Source: Escherichia coli O157:H7
GTDB lineage: Bacteria > Pseudomonadota > Gammaproteobacteria > Enterobacterales > Enterobacteriaceae
DNA length: 64,000 nucleotides
Reading direction: 5' to 3' (one strand)
Assembly: GCF_013167455.1 (NCBI RefSeq)
Contig: NZ_CP038328.1
Positions 6,143-6,450 of this stretch are shown in pieces (the first letter of the stretch is position 1; every line of letters begins with the position of its first letter). A program made the position numbers and the translations under genes. The notes under the pieces are model-generated. The model saw nothing but the letters and a program-made list of their open reading frames with translations, was not told where the DNA came from and ran no database searches.

Positions 6143-6450
6143 GTTTTTTTCTTCCTGTACCTGTCTGTGTTGTTCAGGCTCTACGGCCTTTAGTCAGTCT
6201 ATGATACGACGAATCTGTATCGGGACTCATCGATATTAGGTAACAATACGCGGGATGAATACTAAGATTTAGATCTAATGTTAATTTTATGTTTAAAGTG
6301 AGTGTCATATCACGGTGATAACGCGAAACAGCTCACAAAAATACACGCTTACGGGGTCTTTGCAACACAAAATAGCGCCGTTTGGCAAACTGAAGGGTTT
6401 ATTGCTGAATGCCTGCTCCCCTCTGGTTCGAGGGGAACAGAATGCGCTGC

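Follow-up and report, generated by a model that had tools for sequence, protein, structure and literature searches.

The 308-bp spacer that separates cycA from fklB in E. coli O157:H7 very probably consists of a hairpin at the 3' end of fklB, a CRP-dependent cycA promoter, and an 84-nt leader that is targeted by the small RNA GcvB. The spacer lies within a stretch of 64,000 nucleotides that was analysed as a whole and is hereafter called the window, and it is made up of the fklB 3' UTR (41 nt), the DNA that holds the promoter and the regulatory sites (about 185 bp), and the 84-nt leader. The coordinates, the complementarity to GcvB and its statistics, the accessibility of the sites, the conservation, and the hairpins were computed by us. 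We relied on published papers for the position of the transcription start, the binding of CRP, the RNA 3' ends, the dependence on Hfq, and the repression in vivo, including the compensatory mutations. What occupies the remaining conserved blocks and by which route the fklB 3' end is formed are points that we infer.

On the minus strand of the window, cycA is a 470-aa ORF at 4730..6142, on which the six-frame ORF list and the RefSeq annotation of an identical O157:H7 genome agree, and its product is the D-serine/D-alanine/glycine transporter. The same two sources place the stop codon of fklB, TAA, at 6453..6451 on the minus strand.

6140..6142, minus strand: start codon ATG of cycA (ORF list and RefSeq annotation of the identical O157:H7 genome).

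The initial annotation had put about 308 bp between the cycA start (6142, minus strand) and fklB, and this number is exact, as the spacer runs from 6143 to 6450. It had also described the region as a long leader. A leader and a promoter are both present, but the length does not hold because, by the numbering in print, the transcribed leader takes up only 84 of the 308 nt. The counterpart in K-12 MG1655 (4429556..4429863) is of equal length and differs from the window spacer by a single base, at window position 6425, inside the loop of the fklB hairpin. Therefore, published K-12 results map directly onto the window. Positions 6000-6600 of the window are 100% identical to E. coli O157:H7 genomes, and the spacer was found in 5415 of the 5426 complete E. 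coli genomes with a median of one copy per genome and is, therefore, not a repeat element. There is also a minority allele of the spacer with about 83% identity, carried by the L084 genome (NZ_CM172811.1) and by 76 E. coli genomes, in which hairpin, promoter blocks, and GcvB site are all retained. This divergence together with the retention of the elements suggests that the allele was imported by recombination from a divergent lineage. In the RefSeq record NZ_CM172811.1 the fklB product is named "BamJ family beta-barrel-assembly machinery protein".

Two other observations were made around this locus. At the far end of cycA, the genes ytfE (plus strand) and cycA (minus strand) converge, and the 44 bp between them hold a perfect 10-bp hairpin, GCTGGATGGC-ATTGC-GCCATCCAGC, at 4694-4718, and since a U run is found on the cycA strand only, this hairpin is probably the cycA terminator, shared with ytfE. 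On the other side, a 402-aa ORF for a TnpB/InsQ-type RNA-guided endonuclease (IS200/IS605 family) at 8062-9270 on the minus strand adjoins ytfB, and the matching O157 annotation has a TetR-family pseudogene fragment beside it.

Species-representative genomes with CycA were scanned for this locus, which gave 80 loci. Only in Enterobacteriaceae, in 30 species, is fklB directly upstream of cycA, with spacers of 271-453 bp that are mostly 291-316 bp long. A conservation profile was made from the 29 non-E. coli species. In this profile sequence identity is low over the first 60 nt past fklB, and the leader varies over its first 30 nt. Between these two regions, the profile picks out TTGCAAA (6365-6359), which is invariant, the CRP site GTGTATTTTTGTGAGCTGTTTCGCG, which is near-invariant, GTGATATGACACTCAC followed by TTTAAACAT..TTAAC (6313-6280), and the core promoter block (6263-6224). 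In the rest of the leader, AAAGGCC..AGAGCC and ACAACACAGACAGG are conserved, the latter at 80-100% at nearly every position.

The 3' end of fklB is considered first in the direction of transcription. Two features define it:

6413..6440, minus strand: fklB 3'-end hairpin, CUGUUCCCCUC-GAACCA-GAGGGGAGCAG (predicted fold, dG about -21 kcal/mol).
6410, minus strand: published "primary" fklB RNA 3' end (K-12 4429596; Term-seq, Adams et al. 2021, PMC7815308, supplementary file 1), mapped to the window through the spacer alignment.

The hairpin has an 11-bp GC-rich stem and starts 10 nt past the stop codon. A hairpin of -15.5 to -26.3 kcal/mol no more than 15 nt from the stop codon is present in all 32 orthologous spacers, with stem sequences that differ, and only 0.8% of 256 shuffled sequences reached -15.5 kcal/mol. 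Since the Term-seq end at 6410 sits 3 nt after the stem, the hairpin defines the fklB 3' end. The initial annotation had seen no convincing fklB terminator. It was right in that there is no stem-loop with a U run, but it missed the conserved hairpin and the Term-seq 3' end. The tail of the E. coli hairpin, GCAUUCAGCA, has no U tract (2 U in 8) and a terminator scan for a stem-loop with a U run was silent on it. Because the U tract is missing, we do not class it as a canonical intrinsic terminator. In this it resembles other hairpin-defined mRNA 3' ends that have no U tract, with a strong GC stem-loop near the stop codon and the RNA 3' end at its base. Some orthologues have a canonical terminator, namely, those of Shimwellia, Kosakonia cowanii, Dryocola, and Enterobacter sp. 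(L023), where a U run follows the hairpin. The E. coli fklB 3' end may result from weak intrinsic termination, or else Rho may terminate transcription further downstream and exonucleases then trim the RNA. Some read-through from fklB into cycA is possible, but cycA is unlikely to be expressed mainly in this way because a fragment that does not include fklB drives regulated expression (PMC8948829).

That fragment, from Hook et al., extends from -223 to +117 relative to the transcription start and includes the first 33 nt of the coding sequence (PMC8948829). It follows that the leader is 84 nt long and that the start is at window position 6226.

6226, minus strand: start of cycA transcription (K-12 4429780), deduced from the numbering in PMC8948829 to lie 84 nt before the ATG.
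6233..6261, minus strand: core promoter read from the sequence, with -35 TATTCA (6261-6256), a 17-bp spacer, and -10 TAATAT (6238-6233).
6319..6340, minus strand: CRP site TTTTGTGAGCTGTTTCGCGTTA, matching 8 of the 10 core positions and centred at -103.5 from the transcription start.

The position of the start is derived from the numbering in one paper, together with its consistency with the placement of the -10 element and with the CRP coordinates. The -10 element matches the consensus at 4 of 6 positions, falls at -12 to -7 of the published start, and is conserved. The -35 element is weak, with 3 of 6 consensus positions. The block that holds both, TAGTATTCATCCCGC..TTACCTAATATCGATGAG, is 80-100% conserved in the 29 non-E. 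coli species. A stricter promoter consensus scan did not list TATTCA-17-TAATAT. The sole promoter that the consensus scan gave, GTGATA-18-TAAAAT (6313-6284), does not fit the published transcription start and was treated as unproven.

A CRP site has been predicted at -114 to -93 (PMC8948829), and these coordinates land exactly on the TGTGA motif of TTTTGTGAGCTGTTTCGCGTTA (6340-6319) in the window. Its core, TGTGAGCTGTTTCGCG, agrees with TGTGA-N6-TCACA at 8 of 10 positions. In a gel-shift assay purified CRP shifted a fragment covering -136 to -63 and not one covering -271 to -123 (PMC8948829). For class I activation, however, a centre at -103.5 is a long way upstream. The claim made earlier that the spacer probably holds the cycA promoter is supported by the conserved -10 element at the proper distance from the published start and by a CRP site at the published coordinates.

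Other regulators have been linked to this region. Lrp represses cycA when leucine is not present, and deletions of lrp, ihfA, hns, and rpoS affect a PcycA-lacZ fusion (Hook et al., PMC8948829). Genomic SELEX placed a peak of the RNA polymerase-RpoE holoenzyme in the fklB-cycA spacer at K-12 4427854 in an older numbering, which is about 33 bp ahead of the cycA ATG (PMC5493296). A search of the spacer for a Nac-type ATA-N9-TAT sequence found none. The conservation profile contains two blocks besides the CRP site and the core promoter:

6280..6313, minus strand: conserved block, GTGATATGACACTCAC (a GTGA-N8-TCAC dyad) followed by the A/T-rich TTTAAACAT..TTAAC.
6359..6365, minus strand: invariant TTGCAAA block.

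The block at 6280..6313 is likely a binding region for regulators, among which Lrp, IHF, H-NS, and others have been proposed in print. The dyad within it, GTGATATGACACTCAC (6298-6313, minus strand), is near-invariant and centred at about -80 from the transcription start; it does not fit CRP because its half-sites are 8 nt apart and those of CRP are 6 nt apart. The TTGCAAA block is followed, with a spacing of 16 nt, by a conserved TATTTT (6343-6338) that overlaps the CRP site, and judged by sequence the pair could serve as another promoter of cycA or be bound by a regulator.

The leader was compared with GcvB by using the K-12 gcvB sequence (L001:697-902). The gcvB gene itself is absent from the 64-kb window, and its K-12 sequence is 100% identical to the gcvB of an O157:H7 genome that has the same spacer as the window. 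Watson-Crick complementarity to GcvB was searched over the whole spacer and 60 nt of the cycA coding sequence. The three longest complementary stretches all fall within 24 nt at 6151-6174 (-32 to -9 relative to the ATG), across the Shine-Dalgarno sequence. They are GUACAGGAAG (-18 to -9), a perfect 10-nt complement of GcvB nt 137-146; ACAGACAGG (-26 to -18), a perfect 9-nt complement of nt 153-161; and AACAACACA (-32 to -24), a perfect 9-nt complement of nt 74-82 in the G/U-rich R1. Two elements are therefore listed:

6166..6174, minus strand (-32 to -24): C/A-rich element AACAACACA, complementary to GcvB R1 nt 74-82; the published mutations at -30, -29, and -25/-24 fall inside it.
6143..6168, minus strand (-26 to -1): second GcvB pairing region (ACAGACAGG, GUACAGGAAG, and an A run), which pairs with GcvB nt 130-161 and has the Shine-Dalgarno AGGA (6156-6153, minus strand) inside it.

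When all 30-nt intervals on both strands of the 64 kb (128 kb in total) were ranked by the density of GcvB complementarity, the cycA site came first, with 24 of its 30 nt covered by complementary stretches of at least 9 nt, as against 17 of 30 for the runner-up. This second-densest site, at 37624..37595 on the minus strand, lies within a 316-aa ORF, close to the 3' end, and was regarded as probably due to chance. Interaction energies were calculated in an IntaRNA-like manner, as windowed duplex energy plus the opening energies of both RNAs, because full-length RNAduplex of GcvB with the leader gave unrealistic duplexes of 100 nt. The best interaction joins GcvB nt 130-161 with -26 to -1 of the leader and has a hybridisation energy of -27.1 kcal/mol and a total of -19.1 kcal/mol, with the caveat that this second pairing is in part complementary to a Shine-Dalgarno-like AGGAA that any ribosome-binding site supplies. 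The separate R1 duplex has an accessibility-corrected total of -6.6 kcal/mol. Among 100 dinucleotide-preserving shuffles of the leader, for which the mean was -8.2 +/- 2.2 kcal/mol, none reached the total of the real leader (z = -4.8). Hybridisation energy alone was not discriminating, as 12 of the 100 shuffles equalled the real leader, and thus the statistical case rests on accessibility and on the clustering of the complementary stretches. In the folding prediction, opening the target would cost 2.1-4.3 kcal/mol compared to a median of 10.9 kcal/mol for 24-nt segments of the leader, which makes it the most accessible stretch of the predicted leader fold. Thus, the pairing prediction that the initial annotation had called for does yield a site, and its claim of a C/A-rich 5' UTR targeted by GcvB is upheld by the position of AACAACACA at -32 to -24, by its first rank in the window, by the shuffled leaders, and by conservation.

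Published experiments on GcvB and cycA agree with these predictions. Either GcvB +73 to +82 or GcvB +124 to +161 alone represses a cycA-lacZ translational fusion, and repression is lost only when both regions are damaged, loss of one being insufficient (Stauffer and Stauffer 2012, PMC3658540). Hfq is required for this repression, and gcvB +159CC, +79C, and +80A compensated for changes in cycA at -24/-25, -29, and -30 (PMC3658540). In the window, the mutated positions are C(-30), A(-29), C(-25), and A(-24) within AACAACACA, and our predicted duplexes use both the published GcvB regions and the cycA positions that were mutated in print. It must be added that in the published work GcvB lowers cycA expression only about two-fold. 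According to Miyakoshi et al. (PMC9299463), cycA is among the verified GcvB targets, uses R1, R2, and R3 redundantly, and is in the RIL-seq and CLASH interaction sets, and R2 of GcvB may be used for cycA only. The cited cycA experiments include none in an O157 strain. The locus is the same as that studied in K-12, GcvB is identical, and the K-12 spacer is one base off, so that the strain background, O157:H7-type, is the only difference from the K-12 system and the regulatory sequence offers none. The 5' UTR of cycA was reportedly described as a GcvB target in E. coli K-12 and Salmonella by Pulvermacher in 2009 and Sharma in 2011, and dppA, oppA, gltI, sstT, and yifK are said to be other R1 targets with C/A-rich elements, from work by Sharma in 2007. 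Like these, cycA has an unstructured C/A-rich stretch at or just upstream of the ribosome-binding site, where R1 and Hfq block translation initiation. Unlike these, cycA has a further pairing region in GcvB, namely, nt 130-161 in the R2/R3 area.

The target is also kept outside of E. coli, in the 29 other species of Enterobacteriaceae. In the second pairing region, Enterobacter has CAUAAACAGGAAA in place of the E. coli GUACAGGAAG. In most families in which fklB is no longer upstream of cycA, e.g., those of Serratia, Yersinia, Erwinia, Pantoea, Pectobacterium, and Brenneria, the leader keeps the small hairpin described below and an ACAGG-type ribosome-binding site. A complement of 9-11 nt to R1 is found in most leaders of Erwinia, Pantoea, and Brenneria and in some of Yersinia and Pectobacterium, with a match of 10-11 nt in a shifted register in Erwinia and Pantoea. 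In Serratia the match to R1 is only 5-7 nt, and in most leaders of Pseudomonas, where GcvB is not expected, it is only 3-8 nt.

Taken together, the most likely way in which this region works is as follows. The fklB message would end at the GC-rich hairpin, 41 nt beyond the stop codon. The conserved DNA of about 185 bp that comes next would be the cycA promoter region, with a weak -35, a good -10, and the CRP site at -103.5, and its other conserved blocks are probably bound by regulators, for which the literature has put forward Lrp, IHF, H-NS, Nac, and ArcA. Transcription of cycA would begin at 6226 and give a leader of 84 nt that is predicted to have a stem-loop at its 5' end, then the conserved mini-hairpin, and then a C/A-rich stretch, free of structure, running into the Shine-Dalgarno sequence. 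When glycine is plentiful, GcvA would induce GcvB, and GcvB with Hfq would pair with the leader by R1 (nt 74-82) at AACAACACA or, alternatively, by nt 130-161 at ACAGACAGG-GUACAGGAAG-AAAAA. Either pairing would occlude the ribosome-binding site and lower CycA synthesis about two-fold.

Two structures and one RNA end were located in the leader in addition to the GcvB target:

6197..6226, minus strand: predicted 5'-terminal stem-loop of the leader (fold, -5.7 kcal/mol).
6176..6189, minus strand (-47 to -34): mini stem-loop AGGC-CGUAGA-GCCU, directly 5' of the GcvB site, with covariation.
6144, minus strand: published RNA 3' end in the leader, at -2 of the ATG (K-12 4429862; Term-seq, PMC7815308, supplementary file 3).

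The 5'-terminal stem-loop is a prediction from folding, and the 5'-terminal leader hairpins of other genera have different sequences. The mini stem-loop was examined in an alignment of 60 distinct Enterobacterales leaders, in which 93% of the cells pair. Two of its four pairs, the outer two, covary, with both sides changed in 26 and in 24 sequences, respectively (AU/GC/CG and GC/AU). None of 500 shuffles reached its covariation score, and control helices slid along the alignment were 6-45% paired. RNAalifold gave the same mini helix with the innermost pair one column over. The loop keeps C...AGA, and in five genera the folding energy ranges from -4 to -5.6 kcal/mol. The changes track family boundaries and, therefore, represent few independent events. 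The mini stem-loop is retained even in those Enterobacterales that have lost fklB from its place upstream of cycA, and it appears not to have been described in print.

The RNA 3' end at -2 lies immediately 3' of the predicted GcvB duplex (-26 to -1). It is listed twice in the Term-seq data, for LB 0.4 and for one further condition, with a Rho score of 1.07, which is not significant, and an intrinsic-terminator score of 1.13, and it carries no regulatory annotation by the authors (PMC7815308). For the pairs eptB-MgrR, ompA-MicA, and chiP-ChiX, 5' mRNA fragments that end just past the sRNA pairing site have been reported (Adams et al. 2021, PMC7815308). The cycA end is like these in that it is 3' of the sRNA pairing and has scores that are neither those of Rho nor those of intrinsic termination, but unlike these cycA was not annotated by Adams et al. 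as such a case. From this likeness we infer that the 3' end at -2 may be tied to GcvB. An RNA of about 83 nt, from the transcription start to -2, would contain all three GcvB-complementary segments. It might be a stable by-product protected by GcvB and Hfq or a decoy that titrates GcvB, with the mini stem-loop as a handle for Hfq or another protein, although we think this unlikely. An RNA decoy that titrates GcvB is known in SroC.

Three other explanations of the spacer were considered. One is that fklB and cycA form an operon in which the hairpin is a processing or stability element, most of the cycA message comes from the fklB promoter, and the spacer is merely intercistronic. The failure of the E. 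coli hairpin, which has no U tract, in the intrinsic-terminator scan is in keeping with this, and so is the retention across Enterobacteriaceae of the fklB-cycA synteny and of a spacer length that is mostly 291-316 bp. In addition, Nac activates both fklB and cycA according to microarray data quoted second-hand by Hook et al. (PMC8948829). Yet the primary fklB 3' end in Term-seq is 3 nt past the hairpin (PMC7815308), the -223 to +117 fragment, which has no fklB, drives regulated lacZ expression (PMC8948829), a conserved -10 is well placed at -12 to -7 of the published start, and the leader elements of cycA persist in families that do not have fklB upstream. An operon of this kind is, therefore, improbable.

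The other two explanations are less probable still. Because CycA imports glycine, alanine, and D-serine, the leader could be imagined to sense a metabolite, as a glycine riboswitch or an attenuator, and the small conserved hairpin and the RNA 3' end inside the leader at -2 would suit such an element. Against this, an Rfam search of 5500-7500 on both strands with E-values up to 10 gave no relevant match, and so a riboswitch is not indicated; the leader is just 84 nt long, its sole covarying helix has 4 bp, and it has no upstream start codon. The consensus scan found no terminator-like structure in it, and the scores of the end at -2 (1.13 for an intrinsic terminator and 1.07 for Rho) also speak against attenuation. 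We regard a metabolite sensor as highly improbable. Equally hard to credit is a small gene hidden in the spacer, either the 44-codon ORF at 6308..6174 on the minus strand, which is in the six-frame list, or an independent small RNA, for which the conserved TTGCAAA-N16-TATTTT could be a second promoter. The start codon of this ORF is missing in 17 of 32 orthologous spacers, in Enterobacter and Lelliottia the ORF is shortened to 10 codons, and in the window it starts upstream of the published transcription start; it was, therefore, rejected as a gene. As for a small RNA, the lack of an Rfam match and the Term-seq data, in which the spacer has only two 3' ends, that of fklB and that at -2 of cycA (PMC7815308), both argue against it. 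The reading of the spacer as fklB hairpin, cycA promoter, and GcvB-targeted leader is contradicted by none of the results and is the preferred one.

The cycA control region of this window is already known and published, and because cycA is a textbook GcvB target with a dissected promoter the region carries little weight as a discovery. Its recognition from sequence alone as an sRNA-regulated leader was correct and serves as a positive control. Possible new biology is confined to the conserved mini stem-loop and the RNA 3' end at -2. Since CycA imports D-serine and D-cycloserine, this control region bears on the D-serine tolerance of EHEC and on cycloserine sensitivity, and because the O157-type region is that of K-12 except for one base in a hairpin loop, the results obtained in K-12 should transfer to it.
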